DNA of 64,000 nucleotides. It comes from Candidatus Dormiibacterota bacterium (lineage in GTDB: Bacteria > Chloroflexota > Dormibacteria > Aeolococcales > Bog-877). The position numbers and the translations under genes were made by a program. How positions within the stretch are numbered: position 1 is the stretch's first letter; each line of letters opens with the position of its first letter. Below are positions 27,879-44,099 of the stretch, piece by piece. The stretch lies in contig DAHUZL010000135.1 in NCBI GenBank assembly GCA_027306655.1, positions 6,677-70,676 on the forward strand, read 5' to 3'. Below the pieces are notes generated by a model. That model ran no database searches. It had not been told where the DNA came from and worked only from the letters and a program-made list of their open reading frames with translations.

Positions 27879-29486
27879 TGGCCCGTGGTGTGTCAAGTCG
27901 AGGACGGGGTGGGGGATCGGTTCGCCATCGCCACCCCCCACCGGGCCGCCACCGAGGCCGGCCGCGCGGCGTTCCAGGCGGGAGGGAGCGCGGTCGACGC
28001 CGCTCTCACCGCCAGCTGTGTGCTGAGCGTGGCCTACCCGCACATGACCGGGGTGGGCGGTGACCTCTTCGCGCTGGTCGCCCGCCCGTCCGGCGAGGTG
28101 GTGGCGGTGAACGGGAGCGGGGCGGCGGCGGCGGGGGTCGACCCCGCCGAGGTCCGCCGCCGCCACGGGACCATGCCCCACGACGGGCCGCTCGCCATCA
28201 CCGTCCCCGGCGCAGTGGCGGCCTGGGGGGTGCTGGAGGGCCTCGGCGCCCGCCGCGGCCTCGCCGACGCCATCGCGCCTGCCGCCCGCCTGGCCCGCGA
28301 GGGCGTCGCGGTCGCCCCCTCGCTGGCGCGGGCGCTCGCCGAGCCGGGCGCGGCCGTGGCCCGCGATCCCGGGCTCGCCGCGGTGTTCGTCCGCGACGGC
28401 GCGCCGCTCACGGCGGGGGCGACCCTCCGGGACCCGGCGCTGGCGGCCACCCTGGAGACCATCGCCCGGGACGGGCCCCCAGCGTTCTACCAGGGTGCCC
28501 TGGGCGAGCGATGGATCCGGGGGCTGCGAACCCAGGGAGCGCTCCTGGCCGAGGCCGACCTCGCCGCCCACCAGACCAGGTGCTCCGCGCCGCTGGTGGG
28601 TCGGTACGGCGAGACCGAGATCCTCACCGCCCCGCCCAACTCCCAGGGCTGCCTGCTGCTCGCGATCCTGGCCGTGGTCGAGCGCCTGGGGCTGGCCCGC
28701 GACCACCTCGGCTCCGACGCCGGGCGGCTGGCCCGGCTTTTCGCGGCGGTGACCGCCGAGCGCGACCGCGGCCTCTGCGATCCCGCCGGCGGCCCGGACT
28801 TCGCCGAGCGGCTGCTGGCGCCGGCCGGGCTGGACCGTCTGGCCGCCCAGGTGGACGGCTCCGCCCCGCCTCCGCCCGGTCCGCCGCCCGGCCGTCACCG
28901 CGGGGACACGGTGGCGGTGGTCGCCGCCGACGCCGACGGCACCGTCGTCTCCCTGAACCACAGCCTCTACGGTGGGTTCGGGTCCGGGATCCGCGAACCC
29001 CAGACCGGGATCATCGCCCACAACCGGGGGGCGTCCTTCGTGCTCGAACCCGGGCATCCCAACCGGCTGGCGCCGGGCCGGCGCCCGGCCCACACCCTGA
29101 TGCCGGTGCTGGTTCGGCGGGAGGGGCGGATCGCGGTCGCAGCCGGCACGATGGGGGGGAGCGCCCACCCGCAGATCCATGCGAGCCTCCTGCTGGCGTG
29201 CCTCGACCGGGACCTCGGGCCCGGCCCCGCCGTCGCCCTGCCTCGCTGGGTGGTCGGCGGCCTCGGCGGCGAGGCGGCTCCGGATGGGGCGATGCCGGTC
29301 GTGTTCGCCGAGGCCGGTGTCGGCGCACCGGTCGTGGCCTCGATCGAGCGGTCGGGCTTCGCCGTCCAGCTTCTGGGGCCGCTCGATGAGGGGGTGGGCC
29401 ACGCCCAGCTGATCGTGCGAGACGCGGCCGGTCTCCTCCGGGCCGGCAGCGACCCCCGCGCGGACGGCGGCGGGCTGGTGGGGTGA
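27879..29486 (+). CDS. ggt: Gamma-glutamyltransferase family protein
   Basis: 'GGDTVAVVAADADGTVVSLNHSLYGGFGSG' (Thr nucleophile) and 'TMGGSAHPQ'. A GTG start is inferred. The 5' 1.8 kb of the ORF is rejected as antisense shadow of the aminotransferase and aldehyde dehydrogenase genes. Confidence 0.75.
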   Translation, partial: WPVVCQVEDGVGDRFAIATPHRAATEAGRAAFQAGGSAVDAALTASCVLSVAYPHMTGVGGDLFALVARPSGEVVAVNGSGAAAAGVDPAEVRRRHGTMPHDGPLAITVPGAVAAWGVLEGLGARRGLADAIAPAARLAREGVAVAPSLARALAEPGAAVARDPGLAAVFVRDGAPLTAGATLRDPALAATLETIARDGPPAFYQGALGERWIRGLRTQGALLAEADLAAHQTRCSAPLVGRYGETEILTAPPNSQGCLLLAILAVVERLGLARDHLGSDAGRLARLFAAVTAERDRGLCDPAGGPDFAERLLAPAGLDRLAAQVDGSAPPPPGPPPGRHRGDTVAVVAADADGTVVSLNHSLYGGFGSGIREPQTGIIAHNRGASFVLEPGHPNRLAPGRRPAHTLMPVLVRREGRIAVAAGTMGGSAHPQIHASLLLACLDRDLGPGPAVALPRWVVGGLGGEAAPDGAMPVVFAEAGVGAPVVASIERSGFAVQLLGPLDEGVGHAQLIVRDAAGLLRAGSDPRADGGGLVG

Positions 29487-29644
29487 CGGCCATCGATGAG
29501 GCTGAGGCACCATGATAGGTCCTGAGTTTGTCCTCTCAGCCAGTTGACGAGGGCGACTCGCCCACGGCCTTATTGAGATCAGACGGTCGGGGCTAGAGTC
29601 ACCTCGGGCCGCCCTCGTCATCAACGGCACCGGGAGGGAGCACA

Positions 29645-31492
29645 GTGTTGGCGACGGGAGGTCGAAGGCGAGCCGGGCAGTGCCGGTATCCGGGACCGAT
29701 CTTGACGGGCGCCCTTGTGATGGGCCTGGTGGCGGGGTGCGGCCAGGTTGCGAGCCACGAGCCGGCCCGCCCAGCCGTCGCGGGCACCGTGACCTTTGCC
29801 GACGCGCCGGGCAACCCTCCGAACTACGTGTTCCCGCTCTTGTCCCTGGCCAACGACGCACCGGCGAATCCTGACGGATTTGTCAACCTCCTCTACCCGC
29901 CCCTGTATGCATTCGGGGTCGGTGACAAGCCGGTGGTGAACACGCGGCGCAGTCTGGCCGACCTTCCCACATACTCCAACGGCGGCCGGACGGTGACGAT
30001 CGATCTCAAGCCGTTCCGATGGTCCGATGGGTGGCCCGTCACCAGCCGTGACGTCCAATTCTGGCAGGACCTGGTCACAGCCAACAAGGCCAACTGGGTC
30101 GGGTACGTTCCGGGCGGCTACCCCGACAACGTGGTGCGTTTCCGACTTATCGGCCCACGTCGCTTCACCATCACATTCAACCGACCCTATGGCCGGTACT
30201 GGCTGCTCTACAATGAACTGAGTCAGCTATGGGCCATCCCGCAACACGCGTGGGACAGGACCTCTTCGGGGCAGCCGGTCGGCAACGCCGATCGGACTGC
30301 AGCTGGAGCGCGGGCCGTATACCACTTCCTCGATGCTCAGGCTCGTACCCTCACCACATACGCGAGTAACCCACTTTGGCGAGTGGTGGACGGCCCGTGG
30401 CGAATTGCCACCTACGCACCGTCGACAGGCTATCTGGCCCTGGTGCCCAACCGGCACTACGCCGGCCCGGACCGTCCGCACCTTGCCCGGATTGAGGAGA
30501 TTCCCTTTACCTCAGACTCGGCCGAGTTTGATGCCCTCCGCTCGGGCGCGATCGACTATGGGTACCTTCCCACCCAGGACCTTCCTCAGCTCAGCTACCT
30601 CACCCACCACGGCTTTCAGTTCCGACCCTGGATCGGCTGGGAGATCAGTTACATCCTGTTCAATTTTACGAATCCCCGGGAGGCGCCGCTTTTCGGGCAG
30701 CTATACCTGCGCCAAGCAATGCAACGGCTAGTAGATCAGCCAGCCTGGATCCGGGACATTCTCAAGGGTTACGGGTATGCCACGACCGGTCCGGTTCCGA
30801 CCCGGCCGCCGAGCACGTTCATCAGTCCCTTCGAATCCCGCATCCCATACCCATACAACCCGGGCTCCGCCATCCGCCTGCTTCGCGAGCACGGGTGGAG
30901 GGTGCATCCGGATGGAGTCACAATCTGCGCTCGGGGCGGATCGGGTGCGCATTCCTGTGGTCCCGGCGTGGCCCGCGGCGCAGCATTGGACTTCACACTG
31001 CTCCAAGCCAGCGGAAACCTTGCCATTCTGCAGGAGATGGAGGCATTCAAGTCGGAGCTGTCGCGCGTGGGGATCCAGATCTCGATCGCGCAGGCGCCTG
31101 AGGGTACGGTGGTGGCAGATACGGCGCCATGCACTCGAGCCACGGGGGCCGGCTGTAGCTGGGATCTCAGCAATTGGGACATCGGAGCCGACGGAAGCTG
31201 GCTCTATGGCCTCGACCACTATCCGACGGGTGGCGCGATTTTTGCCTCCGGGGCGGGTGCCAACGGTGGTGGCTATAGCGATCCTCACTCAGACGCGCTG
31301 ATCTCTGCCACCCATACGTCGAGCAGCCTCTCGGCCCTCTATCGATACGAGGACTATCTGGCCCGCCAGCTTCCGGTCCTGTGGATCCCGAACCAGGACA
31401 ATTACCTCACCATCATTCGCTCAAGCCTCCGCGGCGCACTCCCCCAGAATCCCTTTGGCACAATCGAGCCGCAGGATTGGCGATTCAACTGA
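29645..31492 (+). CDS. ABC transporter substrate-binding lipoprotein, family 5 (peptide/opine/nickel type)
   Basis: Lipobox 'LVAGCGQ'. 'RWSDGWPVTSRDVQFWQDLVTANKANW' is a family-5 signature. The gene lies inside the lower-GC island. Confidence 0.75.
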   Translation: MLATGGRRRAGQCRYPGPILTGALVMGLVAGCGQVASHEPARPAVAGTVTFADAPGNPPNYVFPLLSLANDAPANPDGFVNLLYPPLYAFGVGDKPVVNTRRSLADLPTYSNGGRTVTIDLKPFRWSDGWPVTSRDVQFWQDLVTANKANWVGYVPGGYPDNVVRFRLIGPRRFTITFNRPYGRYWLLYNELSQLWAIPQHAWDRTSSGQPVGNADRTAAGARAVYHFLDAQARTLTTYASNPLWRVVDGPWRIATYAPSTGYLALVPNRHYAGPDRPHLARIEEIPFTSDSAEFDALRSGAIDYGYLPTQDLPQLSYLTHHGFQFRPWIGWEISYILFNFTNPREAPLFGQLYLRQAMQRLVDQPAWIRDILKGYGYATTGPVPTRPPSTFISPFESRIPYPYNPGSAIRLLREHGWRVHPDGVTICARGGSGAHSCGPGVARGAALDFTLLQASGNLAILQEMEAFKSELSRVGIQISIAQAPEGTVVADTAPCTRATGAGCSWDLSNWDIGADGSWLYGLDHYPTGGAIFASGAGANGGGYSDPHSDALISATHTSSSLSALYRYEDYLARQLPVLWIPNQDNYLTIIRSSLRGALPQNPFGTIEPQDWRFN

Positions 31493-31521
31493 CGGCGGAG
31501 ACGGCGGCTGCCTTCCGCCAT

Positions 31522-32790
31522 TTGGAATTCCTCGCCGGCCAGTGTGGACCACGGCCGGCTGGATCACCGTCGGCGGTCAGGGCACGGGGGTACATTGCTG
31601 ATGCCCTCGAGCGCCTGGGGATGGATGTTGCAATCACGCCGATCTCTGCTCCGCGCTACGCCCTGGTGACGTCACGGCTCCGCGCCGCCAGGTCGGGAGG
31701 TTGGCGGGAAGTCGAGCACAAGCCGGTGTGGTTCGCCGGCGACACGGGATGCGACGCCATTCAGGCCGAGTTGGTCGACGGGGGGGACGGCAGCGAGGCT
31801 TTCCTTGGTGGCGGAGGCGTCGCTGACAAGGTTGTGTTGATCGCGCGCGATGTATACGTCGATTATCCAGACGTCGTCTTGACCGATCGGCTTCTACGGC
31901 ACCGGCCGGCCGCGGTGCTGTACACGACCAGGGCCGGCTACCAAGGCGGTCCCCCCGACGTGTACTACAACTATCGGACCGTGGAGAGTCACCCGCCCCC
32001 GCCTTCGGCGGTGATCGACTACGCGGCGGCACTGGATCTACTTCGGCGACCACCGAGGCTGGTCGAGTACCAGGCGCAGTACCGGGTCGAGGCGGGGACA
32101 TGCGCCCACGTCGTCGCCACCCTAGCGGGTTCCGACCCCCGCGCCGGTCGGGTCGTAGTGTGCGCTCACTACGACAGCGTTCCCGGGAGCCCGGGTGCCG
32201 CTGACGATGCCGGCGGGGTGGCTGTCGTGCTCGCGCTTGCCGAGCGCCTCAGTGCCCAGGCCCGCCGCGGCCAGCCTCCTCGGCAAACCGTGACCTTTGT
32301 GGCGTGGTCCGGACACGAGACGGGGGTTCACGGGAGCAGCCAGTTCCTCGGCCGGCATCCGGAGTTTGTCGCCAGCTGCCGCTTCGCGCTCAATTTTGAC
32401 GGGATTGGGAGCCGTCTCCACCTCAACCAGATGCTAGGCTGCGGCAGCCCGGAGGTGCTAGCGGCAGTCCAGGGGCGGGTCGCCGGGTGTGGGTATGAGT
32501 GGCCGATGTCCATAGGCCCGGGAGGGCTCGACGTGATCAACCTGACGGCCGTCGGCGTGCCTTGGGTCTCCTTGGGCCAGGGGTTGACCGCGTGGGCGCA
32601 CACGCCCCTCGATGACGTCGACAGCTGCAGCCCCGGCGCCCTTGCCGCGCCGCTGGTTGCGGCCTGGGCGATTTTGGAGTGGGCGGTCGAGGCGGCGGAG
32701 ATTCCGCGCGGGTACCCGCCGGCTCTGGCCGCGGACGCTGCCGAGTACTGTGCCCGGTTCGGTTGGGGGCCGATCGTGGACGAGGACTGA
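31522..32790 (+). CDS. M28 family metallopeptidase
   Basis: 'VVCAHYDSVPGSPGAADDAGGVAVVLALAERL ... VAWSGHETGVHGS'. A TTG start just after the SBP stop is inferred. The ORF's 5' portion overlaps the SBP gene. Confidence 0.6.
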   Translation: MEFLAGQCGPRPAGSPSAVRARGYIADALERLGMDVAITPISAPRYALVTSRLRAARSGGWREVEHKPVWFAGDTGCDAIQAELVDGGDGSEAFLGGGGVADKVVLIARDVYVDYPDVVLTDRLLRHRPAAVLYTTRAGYQGGPPDVYYNYRTVESHPPPPSAVIDYAAALDLLRRPPRLVEYQAQYRVEAGTCAHVVATLAGSDPRAGRVVVCAHYDSVPGSPGAADDAGGVAVVLALAERLSAQARRGQPPRQTVTFVAWSGHETGVHGSSQFLGRHPEFVASCRFALNFDGIGSRLHLNQMLGCGSPEVLAAVQGRVAGCGYEWPMSIGPGGLDVINLTAVGVPWVSLGQGLTAWAHTPLDDVDSCSPGALAAPLVAAWAILEWAVEAAEIPRGYPPALAADAAEYCARFGWGPIVDED

Positions 32791-32818
32791 TCTGTCCCAA
32801 CTCTACCGAGTGCGCGCG

Positions 32819-33214
32819 TCAGTCGCTGGAGGCGTCCGCTTGAACCTCGACCAGCCAGGCCGGGTCAACCAGCCGGGAAACCTCAACCAATGTGGATGGA
32901 GGCGGCGTGCTACCGAAGAAACTAGGCGCGATCGCACGCTCAGCGCGGAGGTACTCGTCCATGTCCGTGGTGAAGGTGTTGAGGTGGGTGACCGCTCGCC
33001 AGTCGAGGCCGAGGGCCCTCAGCGCCGTCGTCACCATCTCGTAGCAGCAGCGAATCTGCCCAGCCATGTCAGTCGCCACCAGCCGGCCCTCGGCGTCGAG
33101 CGCCACCTGACCACCGATGCGGTAGCTGTGGCGGCCATCCGCCACCGAGACGTGGCTGTAGAGGTTGTCGGTGGGCGGATGCAGGCCGATCGGGTTGCGA
33201 TACACTACGGTCAT
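32819..33214 (-). CDS. ridA: RidA/YjgF family protein
   Basis: Start at 'MTVVYRNPIGLHPPTDNLYSHVSVADG'. The gene overlaps the upstream DMFase-like gene by 4 nt. Confidence 0.75.
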   Translation of the reverse strand: MTVVYRNPIGLHPPTDNLYSHVSVADGRHSYRIGGQVALDAEGRLVATDMAGQIRCCYEMVTTALRALGLDWRAVTHLNTFTTDMDEYLRAERAIAPSFFGSTPPPSTLVEVSRLVDPAWLVEVQADASSD

Positions 33215-35469
33215 TGCGGCAGCGGTTCCGGGTCGCTGAATCGGCGCAGCACGTTGGCGGTGATGGTCGAGACGTTGTTGCGGTCCCCGTGGTGCGTCAG
33301 ACTGCCGCCCCACGCTATCGAGCCGACCGCGAAGACGCCCCCACCGGTCGCAGTGGCGTAGTAGGTGACGTCGGCACGGATGGCGGGGTTCTCGGCTGCG
33401 CCGGTCCCCGGTGAGGGCAACCCATCACCGCCGACGTAATTGTTGGAATGGCCCTCGGAGGACGCCAGCAACAGGGTGCCGGGTGGCGAGCCTCGGCGGG
33501 AGTCCATGCTGTCGATCTCGAGACCGGCGGCCCCGCCGCCTACCGCACCGAAATCGCCGATCCGTTCGTCGTCGGCCACGCCCTCAAAGATCCAGCTCGC
33601 GCGCGAGTCCTTGCTCCCGGGCTGGCGTCGATAGAAGGAGCAGCTGTCGAACCCTGATGCTATGTAGCCGAGCCCCATCAGCTTGTGGGGATCGCGGCCC
33701 GATAGCCGCCACGAGCCACCCACTTCGCCCGTAAAGGCGTAGTGGAACTCCCCTGGAAGCGCTTCCCAGTCGTTGCCGCCACCCCATCGGCGAATCTCGA
33801 CCAGATCGGGCCGGTGCGGGTGAAAGGCGATGCTGCCGTGGAATCCATTGCCGCCGAGATACACCACCCTCCCACCCTCGCACACGTACTGCTCGACCGC
33901 ATCCAGCATCGCGCCCGAGTAATACTCGGGGTGGCACCCGGTGACCACCGCGCGATAGGGGCGCAGCAGGTCTACGCCTTCGGTGTGGAGATCATCGTCG
34001 GTAATGACGTCATGCTCAAAGCCCTGACGGGTCATCCAAGATGAGATGCGCAGATCACCGATGAAGGTTCCCAGATTGAATCGATCCCAGCTGTCACGAC
34101 GCGGCTGCAGATTGAGGACCGGCCGCCGACGGGAGGCGAAGGCGACGCCGCTGCCGTCGCTGTGCGTGTCATAGGGCGAGAGCCCGAACTCGCGGTGCGC
34201 CGCCAAGAACAGCTCCTGGGTTTCAAAGACCAGGGTGCGGCCGAAATAGAGTTCGGTGAGCGGGACGTCGATGGCTCCGCGCACGTTGGCATAGACCGCA
34301 TAGGTGGCAGTGGGCGCGAGAAACGCGAGCGGCCTCGTCGCTTGGGCCGCTGAGGGCTTGACGAAGAGGGGGACGTAGTGGTCATCGAGTCCTTGCGCCA
34401 GATGGATGGCGTAGATGCCTGAGGTGGCATCCGGCGGCACCGTCATGCTGAAGTCCGGAAGCCATCGGGCATCGTCAAGATCGTCGTCATGGAAGTGGAT
34501 CGCGGCGTACTCGTCGGGGCGGTCGATGAAACGGACAGCCTTGCCTGTCCAGTTGTGGCCAGTGACCGCGCGGGTTGGCTGATTGACGGTCCGCCCATGC
34601 TGGTCTCGGCCGCTACTGTCGACGACGACATCAGTGGCGACGCCGCCGGAGTCGATGTTGGCCGCAAAGTTCCATCGGCCTACGAGTCCGTCGACCCGAT
34701 CGCCCCGAAGTACCCGGTCGATGGCGCGGGCCCCGAGTGCCCGATCCGCCAGCCATGGGCTCTCCAGCTTGCCATTGAAGTGGTGACGAGCCGCGCCGGG
34801 AAGAGCGCCGTCGGCGGTGGGGAGGGCGGCCATCATGAGCGGGATCGAGATCGTCTCCGCCTCCCCGGTGGGCGGGGACAGGGGCCAGCCTTGGCTGCCG
34901 TCCTCGATCGGAGTGACCCGGGCATAGACGTCCACCGGGCGCAGAGGAAGGGCCACCTGGGTGATCTGAACCGTGCCGACGGCAGGATCCACGATGGCTG
35001 CTACCCGATACCAGCAGCGCTCGCGCAGAGGCGCGCCGGCCTGGAAGCGCTGGGTCGCGCCTCCGGGGCCCCGGAGCCACAGTTCAGTCGCGGCGCTCTC
35101 ATTCACGACCAGGGCAAAGCCCGGACCTCCCGCGGGATCCCACCGTCCGAGAATGGCCTGGATACCCTGGCCGGGCTTGGTCGGCCAGATGAGGGCGCCC
35201 AAGGATAGGCCGGTCCCTGGTCCGAGGGCGGGGTGGGCTGGCACTATCACATGCGACCCGGACCATGCCCGCTGATGCCGCCCCGGGTAGTGACCATTGC
35301 CGACCGCGTCGACCCCAATCTCGGGATGGGTCGGTCCGCCCGGATCCTGATCGGAATGCTCCAGGCGGACCAGCCGGGCCGCATAGGTGGATGACGCCTC
35401 CGTTGACACCATGACCTGGACCGTGTCGCCCGGCCGCACGCTCCAGCGATCGGAGTAGCCACAGATCAT
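33211..35469 (-). CDS. N,N-dimethylformamidase large (beta) subunit-like protein
   Basis: 752 aa. The size and the N-terminus 'MICGYSDRWSVRPGDTV' resemble the DmfA2 family. It follows a 128-aa partner gene with a 4-nt overlap. The family assignment is made from memory. Confidence 0.55.
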   Translation of the reverse strand: MICGYSDRWSVRPGDTVQVMVSTEASSTYAARLVRLEHSDQDPGGPTHPEIGVDAVGNGHYPGRHQRAWSGSHVIVPAHPALGPGTGLSLGALIWPTKPGQGIQAILGRWDPAGGPGFALVVNESAATELWLRGPGGATQRFQAGAPLRERCWYRVAAIVDPAVGTVQITQVALPLRPVDVYARVTPIEDGSQGWPLSPPTGEAETISIPLMMAALPTADGALPGAARHHFNGKLESPWLADRALGARAIDRVLRGDRVDGLVGRWNFAANIDSGGVATDVVVDSSGRDQHGRTVNQPTRAVTGHNWTGKAVRFIDRPDEYAAIHFHDDDLDDARWLPDFSMTVPPDATSGIYAIHLAQGLDDHYVPLFVKPSAAQATRPLAFLAPTATYAVYANVRGAIDVPLTELYFGRTLVFETQELFLAAHREFGLSPYDTHSDGSGVAFASRRRPVLNLQPRRDSWDRFNLGTFIGDLRISSWMTRQGFEHDVITDDDLHTEGVDLLRPYRAVVTGCHPEYYSGAMLDAVEQYVCEGGRVVYLGGNGFHGSIAFHPHRPDLVEIRRWGGGNDWEALPGEFHYAFTGEVGGSWRLSGRDPHKLMGLGYIASGFDSCSFYRRQPGSKDSRASWIFEGVADDERIGDFGAVGGGAAGLEIDSMDSRRGSPPGTLLLASSEGHSNNYVGGDGLPSPGTGAAENPAIRADVTYYATATGGGVFAVGSIAWGGSLTHHGDRNNVSTITANVLRRFSDPEPLPQ

Positions 35470-35852
35470 GTGGGGAACACGGGCACACCGAGGTCGCTCA
35501 AGCGGCGGCAGAAGACCATGTGTTCGGCCTCGGCACGGGAGGTTGCGGCCAGGTCGGGAACTCGCTCCGGTGGCGTCTGGCGATCTCCGGAGAGCACGAC
35601 AACACCGAACAGTTGGTCTGGCTCCAAGGCGACGATCCCATACTGCCCCCGCTGCTCCCCGTGATTGCGGCGCAGGTATAGGAGGATGCGTTCCAAGTGA
35701 GGCGAGTGCGGTCCGAAGGGGTTATGGCGGTGCTCGGCGACGAGCTCCGGTGTAACCAGCGGACGGAGATGGTCCTCGAACAGCCGACGATCGGCGGCCC
35801 GGTAGGCAGCGATCTCAGGCGGATCGGGTGACACGCCGCCGACCGTTGCCAC
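35466..35852 (-). CDS. N,N-dimethylformamidase small (alpha) subunit-like protein
   Basis: 128 aa, translationally coupled upstream of the large-subunit-like gene. The small-plus-large arrangement mirrors dmfA1-dmfA2. Confidence 0.45.
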   Translation of the reverse strand: MATVGGVSPDPPEIAAYRAADRRLFEDHLRPLVTPELVAEHRHNPFGPHSPHLERILLYLRRNHGEQRGQYGIVALEPDQLFGVVVLSGDRQTPPERVPDLAATSRAEAEHMVFCRRLSDLGVPVFPT

Positions 35853-35853
35853 C

Positions 35854-36858
35854 TCAGATCCCGACCGTCTGTGGGGTGAGCCGTTCGGGGCTCGCGCCCG
35901 GGCTGGCCGTCACCGCGAGCAGACCGAGCATCTCGTAAACGAGGTGAGCCGCGGTGAGGCTGGTGATCTCTGCGTGATCGTAGGCGGGAGCCACCTCTAC
36001 CACGTCGCCCCCCACGAGTGGAAGGCCGCGAAGCGCCCGGAGGGTGCCGAGTAGCTCCCGGCTACTGAGCCCACCAGCCTCGGGAGTGCCGGTTCCGGGC
36101 GCGTGCGCCGGGTCGAGCACGTCGATATCGACCGACACATAGACCGGGGCCGATCCGACCCGGGAGCGAATGGTCTGAGCGACGGATTGGCATCCCCCGT
36201 CATCATAGGCCGCTGCCGGTATCACATCGAAGCCCAGCCGCGTGTCGTCGGGCAGGTCCCGTTCCGTGTATAGGGGGCCCCTGATTCCGATGTGAACCGA
36301 TCGCCCATCCAACAGCAGTCCCTCCTCCGCCGCCCGACGGAAGGGCGTCCCGTGAGTAAAAGGCGCACCGAAGTAGGTGTCCCACGTGTCGAGGTGGGCA
36401 TCGAAGTGTACCAGGGCCACAGGGCCTGAATGCCGATTCAAAGCGCGGAGGAGAGGAAGTGCGATCGTGTGGTCACCGCCGATGGCAATCAGGCTCCGAG
36501 CCTTGAGCAGGACGGACTTGGCCGCAGCCTCGATCTGCTCGAGGGCAACGGTGATGTCGAAGGGGTTGCAGGTGACGTCGCCGACATCGACGACCTGCTG
36601 GCGGTCAAACGGTGCGACCGCAAGTCCGGGGTGGTAGGGGCGCAGCAGCCGGGACCCCATCCTGACCGCCGCTGGCCCGAATCGGGCCCCGGGCCGATAT
36701 GAGGTGCCGCTGTCAAATGGTACGCCAAGGATCGCCACGTCCCACCGTGACACCTCGTCCCCACGCGGGAGCCTGGCAAAGGTGGTGGGCCCGCCAAAGC
36801 GGGGCACCGTCCGCCCATCCACCTGGCCGACCGGGGGTGGTGGTTCGGAACTAGCCAT
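35854..36858 (-). CDS. Ureohydrolase (agmatinase/arginase/guanidino-acid hydrolase family)
   Basis: 'GGDHTIALP', 'HFDAHLDTW', 'VSVDIDVLDPAHAPGTGTPE', 'GGLSSREL' are the binuclear Mn ligand motifs. The start was chosen at 'MASSEPPPP' (36858). Confidence 0.8.
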   Translation of the reverse strand: MASSEPPPPVGQVDGRTVPRFGGPTTFARLPRGDEVSRWDVAILGVPFDSGTSYRPGARFGPAAVRMGSRLLRPYHPGLAVAPFDRQQVVDVGDVTCNPFDITVALEQIEAAAKSVLLKARSLIAIGGDHTIALPLLRALNRHSGPVALVHFDAHLDTWDTYFGAPFTHGTPFRRAAEEGLLLDGRSVHIGIRGPLYTERDLPDDTRLGFDVIPAAAYDDGGCQSVAQTIRSRVGSAPVYVSVDIDVLDPAHAPGTGTPEAGGLSSRELLGTLRALRGLPLVGGDVVEVAPAYDHAEITSLTAAHLVYEMLGLLAVTASPGASPERLTPQTVGI

Positions 36859-37018
36859 CTCCCTCACGGCCGGAGCTGTTGACCACGGGGGTGGAGCGGA
36901 CGGTTCTGGTGCAGATGCAGGTGCGGGCATGGGGGGTGGGCGAGACTGACCCGTAGAACTGTGGCCGGCCGGCTTCCTTCGGCGCAATTGGCCGACCGAC
37001 CAAGTCAGGATCCCGACC

Positions 37019-38665
37019 TTGGCCACGGCGGTGGCGCCGGAGCCGAAGCCGCCGGCGAGCGTCGACCAGCGGCCTGCTGTAGAGTGCTCCACCTTGACCA
37101 TCACCGTCGCGGACCTGATCACCATGCCCCATCTCGGCATCTCGGTTCGTGCGGGGGCGGGCGGGCTCGCCGCCCGGGTGTCTTGGGCCCATGTGAGTGA
37201 GCTGGAGGACCCGACCCCGTGGCTGGAGGGGGGAGAGCTGATTATGACCGCCGGAATGGCGGTACCTCGGGGCGCGGCCCGCCAGAAGGCCTACGTCGAC
37301 CGACTGGCTGCACGAGGCGTGGCCGCAGTAGCGATCTCCCAGGACCTCTATGCCCCCGCCGATATGACCGCCCTTCTTGCAGAGGCGGACCGGCGCTCAT
37401 TTCCGGTCCTCGACGTGTCGATCGAGGTCCCGTTCCTCGTCATCACCCGGGTGGTGGCTACCGCCAACCAGGCCGAATCCCAGCGTCGTCTCGTTACCCA
37501 CCTGCAGATCTTCGACTCGCTGCGAGCAGCGTCGCGGGAGGGGCTCGAAGCACGGGCTCTGTTCGACCGCCTGGAGCGGCTCTCAGGATATCGCCTCTTC
37601 CTTGGGACCCCATCGGGGAAGGAGCTCCTGCCCGGGGTGAGCGCGCCCCCAGCCTCGTCGGCCTCGCTCCTCCCGCGGCCCACTGGTGCCTCACCGGAGA
37701 TCCCGGGTGGCTACGCAGTCTCGGTCCCCGTGGCTGGCCGCACGGCCGGCTACCTGGTGGCCCTGCAGACAGACGGCGCGCGTGGCGTCGGACTGTCTGG
37801 AGTCCAGCACATCGCCACCATCGCCGCCCTTCAGGTCGCCAATCTTGACCGCGAGCGCGAGAGTCTTCGGCGTGCCGGCGCCGAGACGCTTGCGGAGCTG
37901 CTTGCCGGAGTGTTGGACCCCGGAGTGGCCCAGAAGCGGCTGGACCTCGCCGGTTTCGACGTCAGCAAACCGGCGGTCTTGGCGGTGATCCGGAGCCGTG
38001 GGGCACCGCTCGATGATCAAGGCGTCGCCAGAGCCCTCATCATGAGTTCCCTTACCCACCTGCTCCTGTTTCAGCGTGACCTTTGGCTGCTCACGCCCGC
38101 CGATCCTGGGCCGGCAGCTGCACTGGGCGCCGTGGAAGGCACCGTGGCAGGGGTCAGCGCACCCTTCAATCCGGCAGAATCGCTGGTTCGCCCCCGTCGC
38201 CAGGCGACTTGGGCTCTCCAGCGTGCACTCGACCGCGGGTCAACTCTGGCGCACTTTCACGAGGCAGAGGCGGCGCTTGCGTGGCTTCCACCCGACGCCG
38301 ACTCCCTCAACGGCCTCGTAGACCAAGTGCTCGGTGCCGTCGTGCGCTACGAGCCTCCCCGAGGAGCCGACCTGCTGCGATCCCTGAGTGTCTGGCTCGA
38401 GTCGGAGCGCCGAACCGAAGCTGCCGCACGGATCCTCGGAGTCCACAAGCACACCCTGGCCTACCGGCTCAGCCGGGTCGAGTCCCTCACGGGCCGAGAC
38501 CTCAGTCGAGTGCGAGACCTGGCGGATGTGTGGCTGGCCATGCGCGCGCTCGCCATTGTGGCGCCGAACCTGCTTGAGGGTGAGCGAACGGTTGGACGTC
38601 GCCGCCGGGGAAAGGGACTGACGGGTCACCTGCCCGATCACGATGTTGGTCTGCCAGGCCACTGA
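37019..38665 (+). CDS. PucR-family transcriptional regulator
   Basis: PucR-like N-terminal domain ('LGISVRAGAGGLAARVSWAHVSELEDPTPWLEGGELIMTAG') and C-terminal HTH ('AAARILGVHKHTLAYRLSRVESLTGRDL'). It is divergent from the ureohydrolase operon. Confidence 0.7.
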   Translation: MATAVAPEPKPPASVDQRPAVECSTLTITVADLITMPHLGISVRAGAGGLAARVSWAHVSELEDPTPWLEGGELIMTAGMAVPRGAARQKAYVDRLAARGVAAVAISQDLYAPADMTALLAEADRRSFPVLDVSIEVPFLVITRVVATANQAESQRRLVTHLQIFDSLRAASREGLEARALFDRLERLSGYRLFLGTPSGKELLPGVSAPPASSASLLPRPTGASPEIPGGYAVSVPVAGRTAGYLVALQTDGARGVGLSGVQHIATIAALQVANLDRERESLRRAGAETLAELLAGVLDPGVAQKRLDLAGFDVSKPAVLAVIRSRGAPLDDQGVARALIMSSLTHLLLFQRDLWLLTPADPGPAAALGAVEGTVAGVSAPFNPAESLVRPRRQATWALQRALDRGSTLAHFHEAEAALAWLPPDADSLNGLVDQVLGAVVRYEPPRGADLLRSLSVWLESERRTEAAARILGVHKHTLAYRLSRVESLTGRDLSRVRDLADVWLAMRALAIVAPNLLEGERTVGRRRRGKGLTGHLPDHDVGLPGH

Positions 38666-38767
38666 GTGGAGTTCGCGATTGTGTTATCGGCCAATTGCCA
38701 TGTCCATCGGGGCGGGTCACACTCGGCCCCGTACAGGGGCGTCGACCGACGCGTGGGGGATTTGGGG

Positions 38768-40591
38768 ATGATTACATTGGGTGGCCCGAGCCGACGGATC
38801 GGCCCGATGCTCAGTCTGGTGGGGTTGATGGCCGCGCTGGCGGCCTGCGGCGGCGGGCTGCCGTCCCGCACGGCGGCGGGTCGCACTCAGGGCACGGTCG
38901 TCTTCGCCGAACCGGCCGGATCGCACCCGACCTACATCTTTCCCCTAGACTCGCTAGCCTATTTTTCGACAATCAACCTGAACCAGTTCCAGTACCTCAT
39001 GTGGCGGCCTCTGTACTGGTTTGGCAGTGGCTCAAAGGTCGTGCTGAATCAGCAACTGAGCTTGGCTTACCCGCCGCAGTTCATCGACGGAAACGGGAAG
39101 GTCGTAATACGACTCAAGCCGTACCGCTGGTCCGATGGCCACCCAGTCACGGCCCGTGACGTCCAGTTCTGGATGAACCTGCTCAAGGCCAACAAGGCCA
39201 ATTGGGGAGAGTATGCCGGCCCTGGCACATTCCCGGACAACGTCGCCAAGGTCACCATCGACAACGCGACCGAGCTGACCCTCACGCTCACCCATGCCTT
39301 CTCACCCACTTGGTTCACATTCAATGAGTTGAGCCAGATTACCCCCATTCCACAGCACGCCTGGGATCGCACGAGCTCAGGTGGAAGCGTCGGAAACTTT
39401 GATGACACTCCCAAAGGCGCCGTGGCCGTTTACAACTTCCTCAACCATCAGGCCGAATCGCTCACTACTTACACCACCAACCCACTCTGGCGGGTGGTCG
39501 ATGGCCCATGGGTTCTTCACACCTTCAACACCACAGGGTACGCCGCCTTCCGCCCTAACGTGAACTACTCGGGTTCGGTCAAGCCTCACCTACGCGAATT
39601 CGTCGAGATGCCGTTCACCTCCGAGACGGCAGAGTTTGACGCCCTCCGGGCCGGAACCATAACATACGGCTACGTTCCGCTCCCCGATGTAAGCCAGATT
39701 CACGCGGTCAGGGCAGCGGGATTCACGGTCCATCCGTGGTATCTGTGGTCGATGAACATCATTCCGCTGAATTTCCACAATCCCGTGGCGGGCTCCATTC
39801 TCCGTCAGCTCTACGTGCGTCAGGCGATCCAGTCGCTCATCAATCAGACTCTGTACCTACGCGCGGCGCTGAAGGGCTACGGCGCTCCAGATTACGGTCC
39901 GGTGCCGATCTATCCGCCCAACCCGTATGCAAGCGCCTACGAGCGGGCGAATCCCTATCCATTCAACCCAGGGCACGCGGTGAGCTTGCTTAGGCGGCAT
40001 GGCTGGCGCGTCCGGCCGGGAGGCGCCTCTACGTGTGCCGATCCTGGGCCGCGGCAGAGCCAGTGCGGGGTGGGTGTGGTCCGCGGCGAGCGGCTGGAGC
40101 TCAACATTCTGTACTCGGCCGGGATCGTCTGGATCAGTCAGGAAATGCAGGCTCTCAGGTCTAGCCTGTCGCTCGCGGGGATCCAGCTCAACCTTCGAGA
40201 GGCGCCGTCGAATACAGTCGTATTCACGCCGATTCCGTGCACGGCCAAGCAGCCGGTCTGCAGTTGGCAGTTGGTGTTTTGGGGAAACGGATGGGAGTAT
40301 GCTCCGGATAACTACCCGACCGGAGGTGACGCCTTTCACACCGGCGCGGTCGGCAACTGGGGCAGCTACAGCAATCCTACCGCCGACCGCTTGATTGCGG
40401 CGACGCACTACCAGACTGGTGAGGCGGTGCTGGTTCGGTACCAGAACTTCATCGCCGCGCAGATCCCGATGCTGTGGATGCCGATTGCCCCCTATCAGAT
40501 CTCCGCCATCCGCGACACCCTCCACGGGGCCACGCCGCAGCCCGTTGACGGGGTTTCGCTCACTCCAGAGGCGTGGTCGCTGAGACGCTGA
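38768..40591 (+). CDS. ABC transporter substrate-binding lipoprotein, family 5, a paralog of the 29645 gene
   Basis: Lipobox 'LAACGGG'. 'RWSDGHPVTARDVQFWMNLLKANKANW' and 'TTNPLWRVVDGPW' are shared with the first SBP. A later start (M at ~38807) is possible. Confidence 0.75.
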   Translation: MITLGGPSRRIGPMLSLVGLMAALAACGGGLPSRTAAGRTQGTVVFAEPAGSHPTYIFPLDSLAYFSTINLNQFQYLMWRPLYWFGSGSKVVLNQQLSLAYPPQFIDGNGKVVIRLKPYRWSDGHPVTARDVQFWMNLLKANKANWGEYAGPGTFPDNVAKVTIDNATELTLTLTHAFSPTWFTFNELSQITPIPQHAWDRTSSGGSVGNFDDTPKGAVAVYNFLNHQAESLTTYTTNPLWRVVDGPWVLHTFNTTGYAAFRPNVNYSGSVKPHLREFVEMPFTSETAEFDALRAGTITYGYVPLPDVSQIHAVRAAGFTVHPWYLWSMNIIPLNFHNPVAGSILRQLYVRQAIQSLINQTLYLRAALKGYGAPDYGPVPIYPPNPYASAYERANPYPFNPGHAVSLLRRHGWRVRPGGASTCADPGPRQSQCGVGVVRGERLELNILYSAGIVWISQEMQALRSSLSLAGIQLNLREAPSNTVVFTPIPCTAKQPVCSWQLVFWGNGWEYAPDNYPTGGDAFHTGAVGNWGSYSNPTADRLIAATHYQTGEAVLVRYQNFIAAQIPMLWMPIAPYQISAIRDTLHGATPQPVDGVSLTPEAWSLRR

Positions 40592-40599
40592 GGATCGGG

Positions 40600-40626
40600 C
40601 GGGGAACCGGGACGATCGTTCCCCGA
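40600..40626 (+). terminator. Candidate stem-loop after the SBP paralog (GGGGAAC-N10-GTTCCCC)
   Basis: 7-bp perfect stem beginning 9 nt after the stop codon. No U-tract. Confidence 0.3.
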
Positions 40627-40692
40627 GCGGATGGCGGTCCCGGCGACCGTGAGCCGCCCGGAGTCGTCCAAAGCCGGTAACGTCTCCGGGCG

Positions 40693-43275
40693 ATGCGCCC
40701 GGTCAGCCAGTTCACGGTCCAGCCCCGGCTCCCGGGGCCGCTCGAGCCGCTCCAGGAGCTGGCCGAGAACCTCCGCTGGACCTGGCATCGTCCGGCTCGC
40801 GACCTGTTCCGGCGGCTGGTGGACGAGGGCGGCGAGGTGCACCGCAACGGTGGGGCGGGCCTGGTGGGCGCCGACGGCGCCGTCAACCCGCTGCTGGCCC
40901 TCGCCCGGGCGGGGCGGGAACGTCTGGACGCGCTGGCGGCGGACCCGGGGTACGTGGCCCAGGTGGCGGCCCAGGCCGAGGCGCTCGACGCGTACCAGCA
41001 GCAGCGGCTCTGGTTCCAGACCGATGGGCCGCCCGGGCTCGGCACCGTGGCCTACTTCTCACCGGAGTTCGGGATCAGCGAGGCCATCCCCCAGTACTCG
41101 GGCGGTCTCGGGGTGCTCGCGGGCGACCACCTGAAGGCCGCCAGCGATCTCGGCGTGCCCCTGGTCGGGGTCGGGCTGCTGTACGCGGAGGGCTACTTCC
41201 GGCAGGAGCTCGACGAGTCGGGCTGGCAGCGCGAGCGCTACGTCGCGCTCGATCCCGAGCTCCTGGGGCTGCGGCCGGTCGCCGGGCTCGAGGTGCAGGT
41301 GGAGCTGGCCGGACGACCGCTCGCCGCCCAGGCCTGGCGGGCCTCGATCGGGCGGGTCCGTCTGTACCTGCTCGACACCGACGTGCCCGCGAATCCCCCC
41401 GACCTGCGCCGTCTCACCGACCGTCTCTACGGCGGGGACATGGAGCACCGGCTCTGCCAGGAGATCCTCCTCGGGGTGGGCGGGATCCGCGCGCTGCGCG
41501 GGGCCGGGGAGGCGCCCACCGTCTTCCACACCAACGAGGGGCATGCCGGCTTCCTCGGCCTGGAGCGGATCCAGGAGCTGGTCGTGGGATCGGGGCTCTC
41601 GTTCGACGAGGCGGTGGAGGCGGTGCGGAGCGCCACCGTCTTCACCACCCACACCCCGGTTCCGGCCGGGATCGACCGCTTCCCGGTCGAGCTGATGCGC
41701 CGCTACTTCGCCCCCCTGGCGGAGGCGTGCGGCATCCCCTTCGCGCGCCTGATGGCAATCGGCCACCACCCGGATGAGCCCGAGGAGGCGCCTTTCAACA
41801 TGGCGGTGATGGGCCTGCGCCTGGCCGGCCACGCCAACGCCGTCTCCCGCCTGCACCAGGCGGTGAGCCGCACCCTCTTCGGCGGGCTCTGGCCGGAGGT
41901 GCCGGCGGCGGAGGTCCCCATCGGCGGCATCACCAACGGTGTCCATCCCCGCAGCTGGGTCGCCGAGGACGTGGACCGGCTGCTCACGCAGCACCTGGGC
42001 CCGGATTGGGACCAGGCGACGGCGGAGCGGTGGGCTGGGCTCGCCGCGGTGCCCGACCAGGCCCTCTGGTCGCTCCGGGAGTCGGGTCGCGGCCGATTGG
42101 TCGCCGCCGTCCGGGCGCGGCTGCGGGCGAGCCAGCTCGCCGTCCCCTCGGGAGGGGGCGACCTCGCCTGGTGGGACGAGGTCCTCGACCCCTCCGTGTG
42201 CACGATCGGCTTCGCTCGCCGGGTGGCCGAGTACAAGCGCGCGACCCTCCTGCTGAGCGATCCGGGCCGGCTGACCCGGCTCCTCACCGACCCGACCCGA
42301 CCGGTGCAGCTCGTCTTCGCGGGCAAGGCCCACCCGGCCGACGAGGTCGGCAAGCGCATGATCCAGGAGCTCGTCCGGTTCGCCGCCGATCCCGCCGTGC
42401 GCCACCGGATCGTCTTCCTCGAGGACTACGGCATCGACCTCGCCCGCGCCCTCTACCAGGGGGCCGATGTCTGGCTCAACACGCCGCGGCGCCAGCAGGA
42501 GGCATGCGGCACAAGCGGCGAGAAGGCGGCGCTCGGGGGCGGTCTCAACTGCTCGATCCGGGACGGGTGGTGGGACGAGGGCTTCGACGGGGAGAACGGC
42601 TGGGCGATCCCCTCCGCCGACCCCGCGCTCGACCCGGCCGAGCGCGACCGCCGGGAGGCCGCCGAGCTGTTCTCGGTGCTGGAGGACAGGGTGGTGCCGC
42701 TGTTCTACGCGCGCGACGGCGGCGGGGTGCCGGCCGGGTGGGTGGCCCGCGTCCGTCACGCGCTGATGGTGCTGGGGCCGTTCGTGAACGCCGCCCGGAT
42801 GGTGAGGGAGTACGTGGAGGCCAGCTACGCCCCGGCCGAGCGACGGGGGGCCCGCCTCGCCGCCGACGGGTTCGCCGTCGCCCGCGACCTGGCCGCGTGG
42901 AAGGCGAATGTGCGGGCGTGCTGGCCCCAGCTCCGGATCGAGGGGGTGCGCGGGCCGGGGGCGCCGCCCGCGCTGGGCGCCCGTGCCGAGGTCGAGGCGC
43001 GGGTGGCGCTGGCCGGCCTGCGTCCCTCGGAGCTGCAGGTCGAGCTGGTGCATGGGGCGATCACCGACGGCGGCGAGATCGACAATCCCGGCCGCGCCCC
43101 GATGGCGCTGGTCGACCCGGAGATCTCCGGGGATGGCGCCCGCTACCGGGGACGCTTCGTCTGCGACCGCGCCGGACCCTACGGGTTCACCGTCCGCGCG
43201 ACCCCGGTCCATCCCGAGCTGGCGAGCCCGCTCGAGACCGGGTGCATCGCCTGGGCCCTCCCGGAGGAGCGATGA
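40693..43275 (+). CDS. glgP: Alpha-glucan (glycogen/maltodextrin) phosphorylase, GT35
   Basis: 860 aa. 'AYFSPEFGISEAIPQYSGGLGVLAGDHLKAASDLGVPLVGVGLLY' and 'GEKAALGGG' (PLP-Lys region). Confidence 0.85.
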   Translation: MRPVSQFTVQPRLPGPLEPLQELAENLRWTWHRPARDLFRRLVDEGGEVHRNGGAGLVGADGAVNPLLALARAGRERLDALAADPGYVAQVAAQAEALDAYQQQRLWFQTDGPPGLGTVAYFSPEFGISEAIPQYSGGLGVLAGDHLKAASDLGVPLVGVGLLYAEGYFRQELDESGWQRERYVALDPELLGLRPVAGLEVQVELAGRPLAAQAWRASIGRVRLYLLDTDVPANPPDLRRLTDRLYGGDMEHRLCQEILLGVGGIRALRGAGEAPTVFHTNEGHAGFLGLERIQELVVGSGLSFDEAVEAVRSATVFTTHTPVPAGIDRFPVELMRRYFAPLAEACGIPFARLMAIGHHPDEPEEAPFNMAVMGLRLAGHANAVSRLHQAVSRTLFGGLWPEVPAAEVPIGGITNGVHPRSWVAEDVDRLLTQHLGPDWDQATAERWAGLAAVPDQALWSLRESGRGRLVAAVRARLRASQLAVPSGGGDLAWWDEVLDPSVCTIGFARRVAEYKRATLLLSDPGRLTRLLTDPTRPVQLVFAGKAHPADEVGKRMIQELVRFAADPAVRHRIVFLEDYGIDLARALYQGADVWLNTPRRQQEACGTSGEKAALGGGLNCSIRDGWWDEGFDGENGWAIPSADPALDPAERDRREAAELFSVLEDRVVPLFYARDGGGVPAGWVARVRHALMVLGPFVNAARMVREYVEASYAPAERRGARLAADGFAVARDLAAWKANVRACWPQLRIEGVRGPGAPPALGARAEVEARVALAGLRPSELQVELVHGAITDGGEIDNPGRAPMALVDPEISGDGARYRGRFVCDRAGPYGFTVRATPVHPELASPLETGCIAWALPEER

Positions 43276-44045
43276 CCGCGCCCGCCGCCGGCGGCGCCCT
43301 GGCGGGCCGGGTCGTCCTCATCACCGGCGCGTCCCGCGGCATCGGCCGGGCGGTGGCGGCCGCCGTCCTCGACGCCGGCGGCCGGGTGGTGCTCACCGCC
43401 CGCCACCCCGAGGGGTTGGCGGAGACCGCCGCCATCCTCGGCGACGCCACCGGGGTGCGCACCGTGGCCGGGGCCAGCGAGGACCCGGCCCACCGCGCCG
43501 CCGCCGTCGCCTGCGCCCTGGAGGCGTTCGGGCGCTGTGACGGGCTGGTCCATGGGGCCGCCGTCAGCCCCCTGTACGGGCCCCTGATCGAGGCCGACCT
43601 CGGCGAGGTCGGGCGCACCCTGGAGGTGAACGTCACCGCCGGGCTGGGCTGGGTCCAGCTGGTCTGGCGGGCGTGGATGGCCGATCACGGCGGGGCGATC
43701 GTCACCCTCGCCTCGGTCGGGGGGCTGCGCGCGGCGCCCGCGATCGGCGCCTACAACGTCAGCAAGGCGGCGCTGATCCACCTCACCCGCCAGCTCGCCC
43801 AGGAGCTCAGCCCCGGGGTGCGGGTCAACGCGGTGGCGCCGGCGGTGGTGCGGACCCGGTTCGCCCGGGCGCTGTACGAGGGGCACGAGGCGGAGGTGGC
43901 GGCACGGTACCCGTTGGGGCGGTTGGGCGAGCCCGCGGACGTCGCCCACGCGGTGGTGTTCCTGCTCGGCGATGCCGCCAGCTGGATCACGGGGACGGTC
44001 CTCAGCGTGGACGGCGGCCTGCAGGTGGCGGCCGGGCCGCTCTGA
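43272..44045 (+). CDS. SDR family oxidoreductase
   Basis: 'VLITGASRGIGRA' and 'YNVSKAAL'. The start overlaps the glgP stop as ATGA. Confidence 0.8.
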   Translation: MTAPAAGGALAGRVVLITGASRGIGRAVAAAVLDAGGRVVLTARHPEGLAETAAILGDATGVRTVAGASEDPAHRAAAVACALEAFGRCDGLVHGAAVSPLYGPLIEADLGEVGRTLEVNVTAGLGWVQLVWRAWMADHGGAIVTLASVGGLRAAPAIGAYNVSKAALIHLTRQLAQELSPGVRVNAVAPAVVRTRFARALYEGHEAEVAARYPLGRLGEPADVAHAVVFLLGDAASWITGTVLSVDGGLQVAAGPL

Positions 44046-44099
44046 CGCGGCGACGGACGTCCGGGTGCGGATCCCGCCCGCGTCGTACGATCGGCGTCG

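Follow-up and report, generated by a model that had tools for sequence, protein, structure and literature searches.

The window analysed here is a stretch of 64,000 nucleotides (nt) from a Candidatus Dormiibacterota bacterium (GenBank assembly GCA_027306655.1, contig DAHUZL010000135.1, positions 6,677 to 70,676 of the forward strand). Between the genes ggt and glgP it carries an island of ~11.17 kb (29487-40656). This island is very probably a horizontally acquired gene cluster without mobility genes, which entered the ggt-glgP spacer directly after the stop codon of ggt. With equally high probability the gain took place on the branch that led to this species, and the island now persists stably in the chromosome. 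An original prediction made from the sequence of the window had proposed a compositionally foreign, lineage-specific block at this locus, and this was borne out by third codon positions, by tetranucleotide usage and by the empty sites of two relatives. Overall, the island is a catabolic cluster of an ordinary kind, well delimited and horizontally acquired, with a mildly interesting combination of enzymes. It provides a clean case of a compositionally foreign catabolic cluster that is fixed in an uncultured, poorly sampled high-GC lineage and shows no trace of mobility machinery. The island and its native flanks are as follows.

27864-29486, plus strand: ggt (gamma-glutamyltranspeptidase), native left flank; start approximate, stop codon TGA at 29484-29486; Pfam G_glu_transpept, E = 5e-105; syntenic with the relatives L001 and L003 up to 29472 and 29489, respectively
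29487-40656, no strand: inserted island, ~11.17 kb, delimited by synteny breaks, a GC step, GC3 (GC content at third codon positions) and tetranucleotides
40651-40692, plus strand: native ggt-glgP spacer, still in place, with the region upstream of glgP (...GCCGGTAACGTC...); aligns with the corresponding spacers in L001 and L003, and the blastn segments extending from glgP reach 40657 and 40675
40693-43275, plus strand: glgP (alpha-glucan phosphorylase), intact native right flank; Pfam DUF3417 and Phosphorylase

Composition of the island

Base, codon and oligonucleotide composition of the island were all found to be atypical. In windows of 1 kb the GC content was 0.59-0.69 across 29.5-40.6 kb and 0.72-0.79 in the flanks. 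The GC trough of the original prediction is thus real and lies where it had been placed, but it is shallower than the 53-63% given there; a minimum of ~0.55 was reached only in 60-nt windows within the island. At the left edge the GC content fell from 0.83 to 0.55 at position 29490. The six large island genes showed a uniform GC3 of 0.74-0.76. Outside the island the mean GC3 was 0.906 with a standard deviation of 0.06 (31 crude gene calls), and well-framed host genes had values of ~0.93-0.96. The tetranucleotide distance to the host profile, calculated in 5-kb windows, was 0.031-0.036 for the island and 0.008-0.018 for every pure host window. The island is therefore two to three times as distant as any host window, and the GC and tetranucleotide profiling proposed earlier as a check revealed outlying rather than uniform composition.

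The lower GC content could in principle result from the type or the expression level of the encoded proteins. In that case the genes would be native and the indel a separate matter. Other low-GC patches of the window are indeed explained by the composition of membrane proteins. Two patches with a GC content of 0.67-0.71 and a strong AT skew, at 12099-15358 and 58280-62274, encode membrane subunits of NADH dehydrogenase, an MFS transporter and an amino-acid permease. Well-framed genes of these patches keep a high GC3 of 0.88-0.93 (the frame call at 12099-14210, with a GC3 of 0.79, is doubtful). Consequently, the dips at 12-15 kb and 58-62 kb reflect the amino-acid composition of membrane proteins and not foreign DNA. 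In the island, by contrast, the drop is found at the third codon position and is uniform over soluble enzymes, regulator and lipoproteins. Moreover, the block is missing from both L001 and L003. Native genes with a composition set by protein type or expression are thus a very improbable explanation.

Empty sites in two relatives

Relatives were identified by a search with glgP against one genome per species. Only two close ones were obtained, namely L001 (DATLUG010000044.1) and L003 (DAHUZI010000109). The GlgP proteins of L001 and L003 are 81% and 76% identical to that of the window over residues 1-852, and tblastn gave identities of 72% and 67% for ggt. A metagenome scan with glgP revealed nothing closer than 47% and added no outgroups. 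The L001 record bears the title 'Candidatus Micrarchaeia archaeon', yet it shares ~80% DNA identity and more than 20 kb of collinear sequence with this 75%-GC bacterial locus and with L003; the L001 contig is almost certainly mis-binned or mislabelled. L003 is labelled Dormiibacterota.

Both relatives showed the empty site that the original prediction had called for, with ggt directly followed by glgP and with collinear flanks. The end of ggt and the start codon of glgP are separated by 50-62 nt, no island genes are present, and the GC content over the junction is 0.72-0.79. In the blastn comparison positions 1-9942 of L003 aligned to 19960-29489 of the window and positions from 9965 onward to 40657 onward. 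The step from 9942 to 9965 in L003 thus corresponds to the step from 29489 to 40657 in the window; for L001 the corresponding steps are 9936 to 9982 and 29472 to 40675. The sequence collinear with the relatives extends over ~9 kb to the left and ~5 kb to the right of the island.

These comparisons located the island edges at 29487-29497 on the left and 40650-40656 on the right, i.e. to within ~10 nt. On the left, homology to the relatives ends at the stop codon of ggt. On the right, the window sequence ...GCCGCCCGGAGTCGTCCAAAGCCGGTAACGTCTCCGGGCG-ATG aligns with the glgP upstream spacers of L001 and L003, and the N-terminus MRPV(S/N)(Q/R)FT of GlgP is kept in four relatives. The glgP gene including its start codon is native and untouched. 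The insertion point is the ggt-glgP spacer just past the ggt stop codon and does not lie within glgP.

A short direct repeat near the island edges

The original prediction had bounded the island by a direct repeat matching at 13 of 14 positions and had regarded this repeat as the footprint of a site-specific insertion with target duplication. Both copies were found exactly where they had been reported.

29536-29549, plus strand: left repeat copy TCAGCCAGTTGACG, in the non-coding leader upstream of the first solute-binding protein gene (SBP1), ~45 nt inside the island
40703-40716, plus strand: right repeat copy TCAGCCAGTTCACG, in native glgP codons 4-8 (VSQFT), ~50 nt outside the island

In the model built on this footprint, site-specific or transpositional insertion would have taken place in the 5' end of glgP, the 14-nt repeat (TCAGCCAGTT(G/C)ACG) would be the duplicated target or the core of an attachment (att) site, and the integrase would since have been lost. 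The repeat exists, it lies roughly near both compositional edges, and the block is absent from the relatives, which all agrees with such an event. However, the copies do not mark the boundaries, since the synteny breaks precede the left copy by ~45 nt and the right copy by ~50 nt. The surroundings of the copies were equally informative. Insertion with target duplication and insertion at an att core would both place the native upstream sequence beside the left copy. It was found beside the right copy, which is directly preceded by the native glgP start ATGCGCCCGG (9/10 positions match L001 and 8/10 match L003) and by the upstream spacer. In the 49 nt that precede the left copy the GC content is 0.57, compared with 0.80 in the native spacers, and local alignment against shuffled sequences revealed no similarity of these 49 nt to the spacers (P = 0.94 and 0.76). 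The repeat is thus neither a target duplication nor an att core.

In the empty sites of the relatives only the glgP copy is present, where it is part of ordinary, conserved codons. L003 has TCAGCCGGTTCACC at the position of the right copy and L001 has TGAACCGCTTCACC. The peptide MRPVSQFT also occurs in the relative P0249, and other relatives have VSRFT or VNRFT.

The frequency of such repeats was determined with 3,000 random window pairs taken 8-12 kb apart from the same sequence. A direct match of at least 13/14 was present in 3.6% of the pairs of 150-nt windows and in 14.7% of the pairs of 300-nt windows. This disagrees with the chance estimate of 1 in 300 on which the earlier interpretation had relied. 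Over the 64 kb, 7,954 pairs of 14-mers were counted that match directly with no more than one mismatch, and none of the region's 20 largest repeat families included the pair in question. Coding sequence makes up 96.5% of the island, and its non-coding gaps do not exceed ~160 nt, which leaves no room for a decayed integrase. Site-specific insertion into glgP is contradicted by the empty-site alignment and hardly deserves credence; the leader of SBP1 and the conserved coding sequence of glgP match at 13/14 positions by coincidence. At a GC content of ~75%, finding a 13/14 match close to two compositional edges does not indicate site-specific insertion. The comparison with empty sites settles the question directly.

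The left repeat copy contains the hexamer TTGACG, which was considered as the -35 box of an SBP1 promoter. It was rejected, as no acceptable -10 box was present at a distance of 16-18 nt.

Search for mobility signatures and route of entry

The true edges of the island were compared in two zones of 81 nt. Direct matches did not exceed 5 nt and inverted matches 6 nt, which in either case is less than the null mean of ~7 (6.97 for inverted matches). With ARAGORN, the whole 64 kb proved to be free of tRNA and tmRNA genes. Each of the eight island genes was assigned to a Pfam family other than an integrase or transposase, and no such domain turned up in those flanking genes that were scanned, which cover part of the window's open reading frames (ORFs). 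The original prediction had stated that integrase, transposase and tRNA are missing, and these searches agree with it within that range. Terminal inverted repeats, a target-site duplication and a transposase were not found for the island. Likewise, it has none of the features of a site-specific integrative element, i.e. abutting direct repeats, an integrase at one end and a tRNA, tmRNA or att target.

Further signals were sought around the island. Rfam at E <= 1 revealed no riboswitch, guanidine types included, and no other RNA family in 28.5-41.5 kb, and the promoter and terminator scan gave counts at chance level. The hairpin at 40600-40625 after the gene of the second solute-binding protein (SBP2) was rejected as a terminator since shuffled sequence folds equally well (z = 0.05). 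The 4 nt GTGA common to both exact junctions were noticed by eye as a candidate microhomology and are too short to carry meaning.

Target duplication, terminal repeats, att site, tRNA, integrase and transposase were not found in any of these searches. By exclusion, the island would thus most likely have entered by recombination of incoming DNA, either illegitimate or mediated by flanking sequence. It resembles genomic (metabolic) islands without mobility genes in being a discrete block of ~11 kb that relatives lack although the locus is otherwise collinear, in its deviant GC content, GC3 and oligonucleotide usage, and in its coherent accessory catabolic cargo with its own regulator. It differs from classical integrative islands, as it has no tRNA or att target, no flanking direct repeats and no integrase. 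It is also fixed and not variable within the species as sampled.

Gain, loss and persistence in the species

An ungapped flank alignment of 14.2 kb was used to compare the window, L001 and L003. The closest pair consisted of the window and L001, with identities of 0.790 and 0.812 versus 0.769-0.789. These two also shared the most sites, with 1005 versus 819 and 817 in the left block and 571 versus 398 and 454 in the right block. With the window and L001 as closest pair and L003 as outgroup, a single gain suffices to explain the distribution of the island, whereas loss needs two near-identical deletions.

The cluster might instead have been present at this locus in the ancestor and have been lost from L001 and L003, in one lineage or in two, so that the window represents retention. 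Bacteria often lose accessory clusters by precise deletion, and the comparison comprises only two outgroups with a three-taxon rooting that assumes a molecular clock. However, a GC3 of 0.75 compared with ~0.93 and outlying tetranucleotides show that the cluster is not yet host-like, which argues against long residence. If the window and L001 are sisters, as appears from the alignment, two deletions with near-identical ends would have been required, each of which left a normal spacer of 50-62 nt. In addition, the host clade has no relatives of the island proteins. An ancestral cluster that was later lost is consequently unlikely, and acquisition in the lineage leading to this species is preferred.

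Several points weigh against this acquisition or narrow it. Besides the small number of outgroups and the clock rooting, a small chance is formally left for one loss in an ancestor shared by L001 and L003. The DNA of the relatives has diverged by ~20%, which makes 'recent' a relative term. The mechanism of insertion is deduced only from absent signatures. Finally, the best named matches of SBP2 (Streptosporangiales, 54-56%) are too distant to name a donor.

The persistence of the island was followed in independent assemblies. The left junction was present in a Logan assembly from another sample (L081, SRR13766253), which covers 29443-36398 with 3 mismatches. Its final 47 nt lie within ggt and contain 0 mismatches. 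The right junction was present in another metagenome-assembled genome (L171, GCA_027313325.1), which covers 36709-50607 with 99.58% identity. This contig shows the gene order PucR-SBP2-glgP-SDR-DUF6909 plus further genes and comprises ~10 kb of host sequence. Between the strains, 8 differences were counted in 3,948 bp of the island (0.20%) and 34 substitutions in 9,951 bp of the host part (0.34%). Since the divergence of the island is like that of the host part, the island is older than the split of these strains, and it is fixed in the species as sampled.

The same data bear on an assembly or binning artefact, in which a lower-GC contig of another organism was misjoined between ggt and glgP. 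In its favour, the DNA evidently comes from a metagenome assembly, and related contigs of other samples break up within the island. An artefact would nevertheless have had to produce the left junction again in the independent sample of L081 and the right junction in the L171 genome with 99.6% identity, and strain divergence is similar in island and host part. A misjoin is therefore extremely improbable.

Gene content of the island

Eight genes are located between ggt and glgP. They are listed below together with the divergent intergenic region.

29645-31492, plus strand: SBP1, family-5 solute-binding lipoprotein; lipobox LVAGCG; Pfam SBP_bac_5, E = 1e-36; the same gene of 615 amino acids (aa) is called on L081
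31477-32790, plus strand: M28-family metallopeptidase; Pfam Peptidase_M28, E = 5.5e-28; a 437-aa gene is called on L081 and L083
32819-33214, minus strand: Rid/YjgF-family protein, 131 aa; Pfam Ribonuc_L-PSP (PF01042), E = 4.6e-16
33211-35469, minus strand: large (beta) subunit of a DMFase-family amidase (DMFbeta), 752 aa; Pfam DMFA2_C (PF20254), E = 7e-84
35466-35852, minus strand: small (alpha) subunit of the DMFase family (DMFalpha), 128 aa; 4-nt overlap with the beta gene (35466-35469); PF26354 DMF_alpha precomputed on identical contigs
35854-36858, minus strand: arginase-family ureohydrolase, guanidino-acid/agmatinase type; start taken at Met95 of an ORF open to 37140; Pfam Arginase (PF00491), E = 1.8e-92
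36859-37018, no strand: divergent intergenic region between the ureohydrolase operon and pucR; control region presumed from the layout only
37019-38665, plus strand: PucR-family transcriptional regulator, 548 aa; Pfam PucR and HTH_30; the same 548-aa gene is called on L171
38807-40591, plus strand: SBP2, second family-5 solute-binding lipoprotein; lipobox LAACGG; ORF open from 38666; Pfam SBP_bac_5, E = 6e-33; a 594-aa gene is called as P0121/P0241

This content largely agrees with the original prediction, which had named the two solute-binding proteins, the M28 peptidase, the PucR regulator, the ureohydrolase and DMFase-like subunits, and which had called the cargo a coherent catabolic set. 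The genes indeed form a catabolic and uptake set. The label 'RidA' did not hold, as described below.

The four minus-strand genes overlap or abut and thus form one operon, divergent from pucR. The M28 peptidase gene overlaps the end of the SBP1 gene by 16 nt, so these two genes are probably co-transcribed. SBP1 and SBP2 are 47% identical and are old paralogues. The PucR-family regulator matched PmfR only in part and far below the cutoff (160.7 bits versus 800).

The large amidase subunit was compared with the N,N-dimethylformamidase (DMFase) of Paracoccus (PDB 6LVB). The alignment covered the full length of the protein (residues 2-751, E = 1e-161), and Y399, Y440, H519 and E521 of 6LVB aligned with Y393, Y433, H513 and E515 of the island protein. 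In the DMFase, Fe(III) is coordinated by Y399, Y440 and E521 (2-Tyr-1-carboxylate), with H519 as a neighbouring residue (PMC7686228). Judged by the alignment, the iron ligands and with them the active site of the island amidase are intact. The small subunit had no match in the Pfam copy used for the direct scan; the pairing of alpha and beta genes is kept in homologues. The DMFA2_C domain, full-length homology, the iron site and an alpha gene immediately upstream place the enzyme in the DMFase family.

The island amidase resembles DmfA1/DmfA2, the N,N-dimethylformamidase of Paracoccus and Methylobacterium (6LVB; PMC7686228), in its two-subunit organisation with overlapping genes and in its 2-Tyr-1-Glu iron ligands with the additional His. 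It differs in being only ~38-43% identical to characterised or plasmid-borne DMFases and in its context of ureohydrolase, Rid protein, M28 peptidase and peptide-type solute-binding proteins. This gene context and the identity of ~40% point to a natural amide rather than N,N-dimethylformamide (DMF) as the likely substrate. Since N-acetyl-(R)-beta-phenylalanine acylase (8HUY) is a member of the same family, specificity is not readable from family membership. According to a preprint by the DMFase authors, DMF is not known to occur in nature.

The ureohydrolase was assigned to the NCBIfam agmatinase subfamily with a marginal score (308.5 bits versus a cutoff of 302). Its translation, read directly, shows IGGDHT, FDAHLDT and SVDIDVLDP. 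The metal-binding motifs of the arginase fold are GGDH, DAHxD and SxDxDxxDP. The operon partners of the island gene are presumably unlike those of the Pseudomonas gbu and gpu loci. The best matches among solved structures were 3-guanidinopropionase (3NIP, 268 bits) and guanidinobutyrase (3NIO, 262 bits), i.e. GpuA and GbuA of Pseudomonas aeruginosa, with which the protein also shares the arginase-fold metal motifs. Unlike these enzymes, it is placed, marginally, in the agmatinase subfamily, and its substrate is a prediction only.

The catalytic Arg of canonical RidA belongs to the PARS motif and is Arg105 in E. coli. In alignments with PDB 5YU2 and 2DYY the island protein has a Ser (PPPST) in place of this residue, and with TIGR00004 it reached only 28.9 bits versus a cutoff of 106.25. 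The original label 'RidA' was therefore withdrawn; judged by motif and score, the protein is a member of the Rid superfamily but not a canonical RidA.

Origin of the island proteins

Homologues of DMFbeta were sought among 5.8 billion proteins. Apart from identical copies on short contigs of the same species, the best homologue was 46-48% identical, and named matches were scattered over Binatia, Dormibacterota, Rhodospirillales, Streptomyces and Rokubacteria. The best matches of SBP2 reached 55-57%, the named ones being Planotetraspora, Streptosporangiaceae and Microbispora with 54-56%, Acidimicrobiia with 47-49% and Dormibacteria with 48%. The host glgP, by contrast, has relatives at 76-81%. 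Beyond its three or four close relatives, the best matches of the host glgP are 55-59% identical and all belong to Acidimicrobiia or other Actinomycetota, with no Dormibacterota among the best 120. These matches point to another phylum of the host than the Dormiibacterota label of L003 does. Thus, judged by best matches only, the named SBP2 matches (Streptosporangiales) and the host glgP matches (Acidimicrobiia) both fall into the Actinomycetota.

A plasmid search with DMFbeta gave 79 matches, all below 43% (Rhodococcus, Mycobacterium, Rhizobium/Agrobacterium, Paracoccus and Methylobacterium). The DMFase family is often plasmid-borne, and the plasmid matches give no source for the island. The loci of the three best DMFbeta homologues were considered as a donor-like cluster and rejected, as they had only the alpha/beta pair in common. 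Exact-protein look-ups with glgP, two start variants of SBP2, P0121 and P0130 found none of them on record. The donor is unsampled; the SBP2 matches make us lean weakly towards an actinomycete-like source.

A related module and a proposed pathway

The best relative of SBP2 is encoded in a cluster on contig L172 (WNGL01003832, GCA_009772715.1; 4838-12540) with the order PucR / SBP5-permease-permease-ATPase-SBP5-DMFalpha-DMFbeta, SBP5 denoting family-5 solute-binding proteins. Identities to the island proteins are 46% for PucR, 57% and 48% for the solute-binding proteins and 31% for DMFbeta. The two clusters agree in the regulator family, the two paralogous SBP5 genes and the DMFase-family alpha/beta pair. 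The L172 cluster differs in having two permeases and a fused ATPase, which the island does not have, and no ureohydrolase, Rid or M28 gene is present on its readable part. Its GC3 of 0.85-0.96 shows that it is not the donor of the island. As it is found in the unrelated L172 genome too, the combination of PucR, two SBP5 proteins and a DMFase-family amidase is a recurring module, and the island is a form of this module that has no transporter core.

Judged by gene content, the cargo is most likely a PucR-controlled module for uptake and catabolism of a nitrogen-rich, peptide-like amide or guanidino compound; substrate and order of steps are deductions from sequence. In such a pathway the two SBP5 lipoprotein receptors would capture the substrate and use an Opp/Dpp-type permease encoded elsewhere. 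The M28 peptidase would trim the substrate, and the iron-dependent DMFase-family alpha/beta amidase would cut an N-substituted amide bond. The guanidino-acid-type ureohydrolase would then free urea, and the Arg-less Rid-family protein might handle a reactive intermediate.

Two observations speak against this assignment. No Opp/Dpp-type permease or ATPase that could serve the two solute-binding proteins was found in the 64 kb, and the uptake role is accordingly a prediction only. The L172 cluster, with a DMFbeta of only 31% identity, may act on a different compound. We regard it as a tentative possibility, rather less than an even chance, that the island encodes an uncharacterised pathway under PucR control, with an iron amidase of the DMFase family that acts on a natural, peptide-like imported substrate and works together with a guanidino-acid ureohydrolase and an Arg-less Rid protein. 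If this were true, the physiological role of the DMFase family would become testable, also with the L172 module. By associating an iron amidase of this family with peptide-type binding proteins and a ureohydrolase, the island offers a modest clue to the natural role of these enzymes.

Neighbouring regions of the window

Directly after glgP, an SDR gene and a DUF6909 gene (E = 5e-187) were found at 43272-45827. They are collinear in the window, L001 and L003, which suggests that glgP-SDR-DUF6909 is a conserved unit in this clade.

A second indel relative to L001 was observed further downstream, where the window has ~4.2 kb (46174-50409) and L001 has 342 nt (15517-15859). This block encodes a molybdate-type ABC set (SBP_bac_11, permease and ABC_tran+TOBE) and a ModE-like regulator with HTH and PBP_like domains. 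It has a host-like GC3 of 0.89-0.94 and is present in the sister strain L171, and is thus unlike the event that produced the low-GC island. The window and L171 differ by a 16-nt indel at 50391-50406, which falls in the 3' end of the gene for the ModE-like regulator or immediately behind it; their other differences are scattered substitutions.

At the start of the window a PIN-domain gene (1515-2156, minus strand) lies in a patch with a GC content of 0.67-0.69. Its GC3 of 0.70 is the lowest outside the island, and no relative covers this region. The patch could be a small foreign toxin-antitoxin insert.

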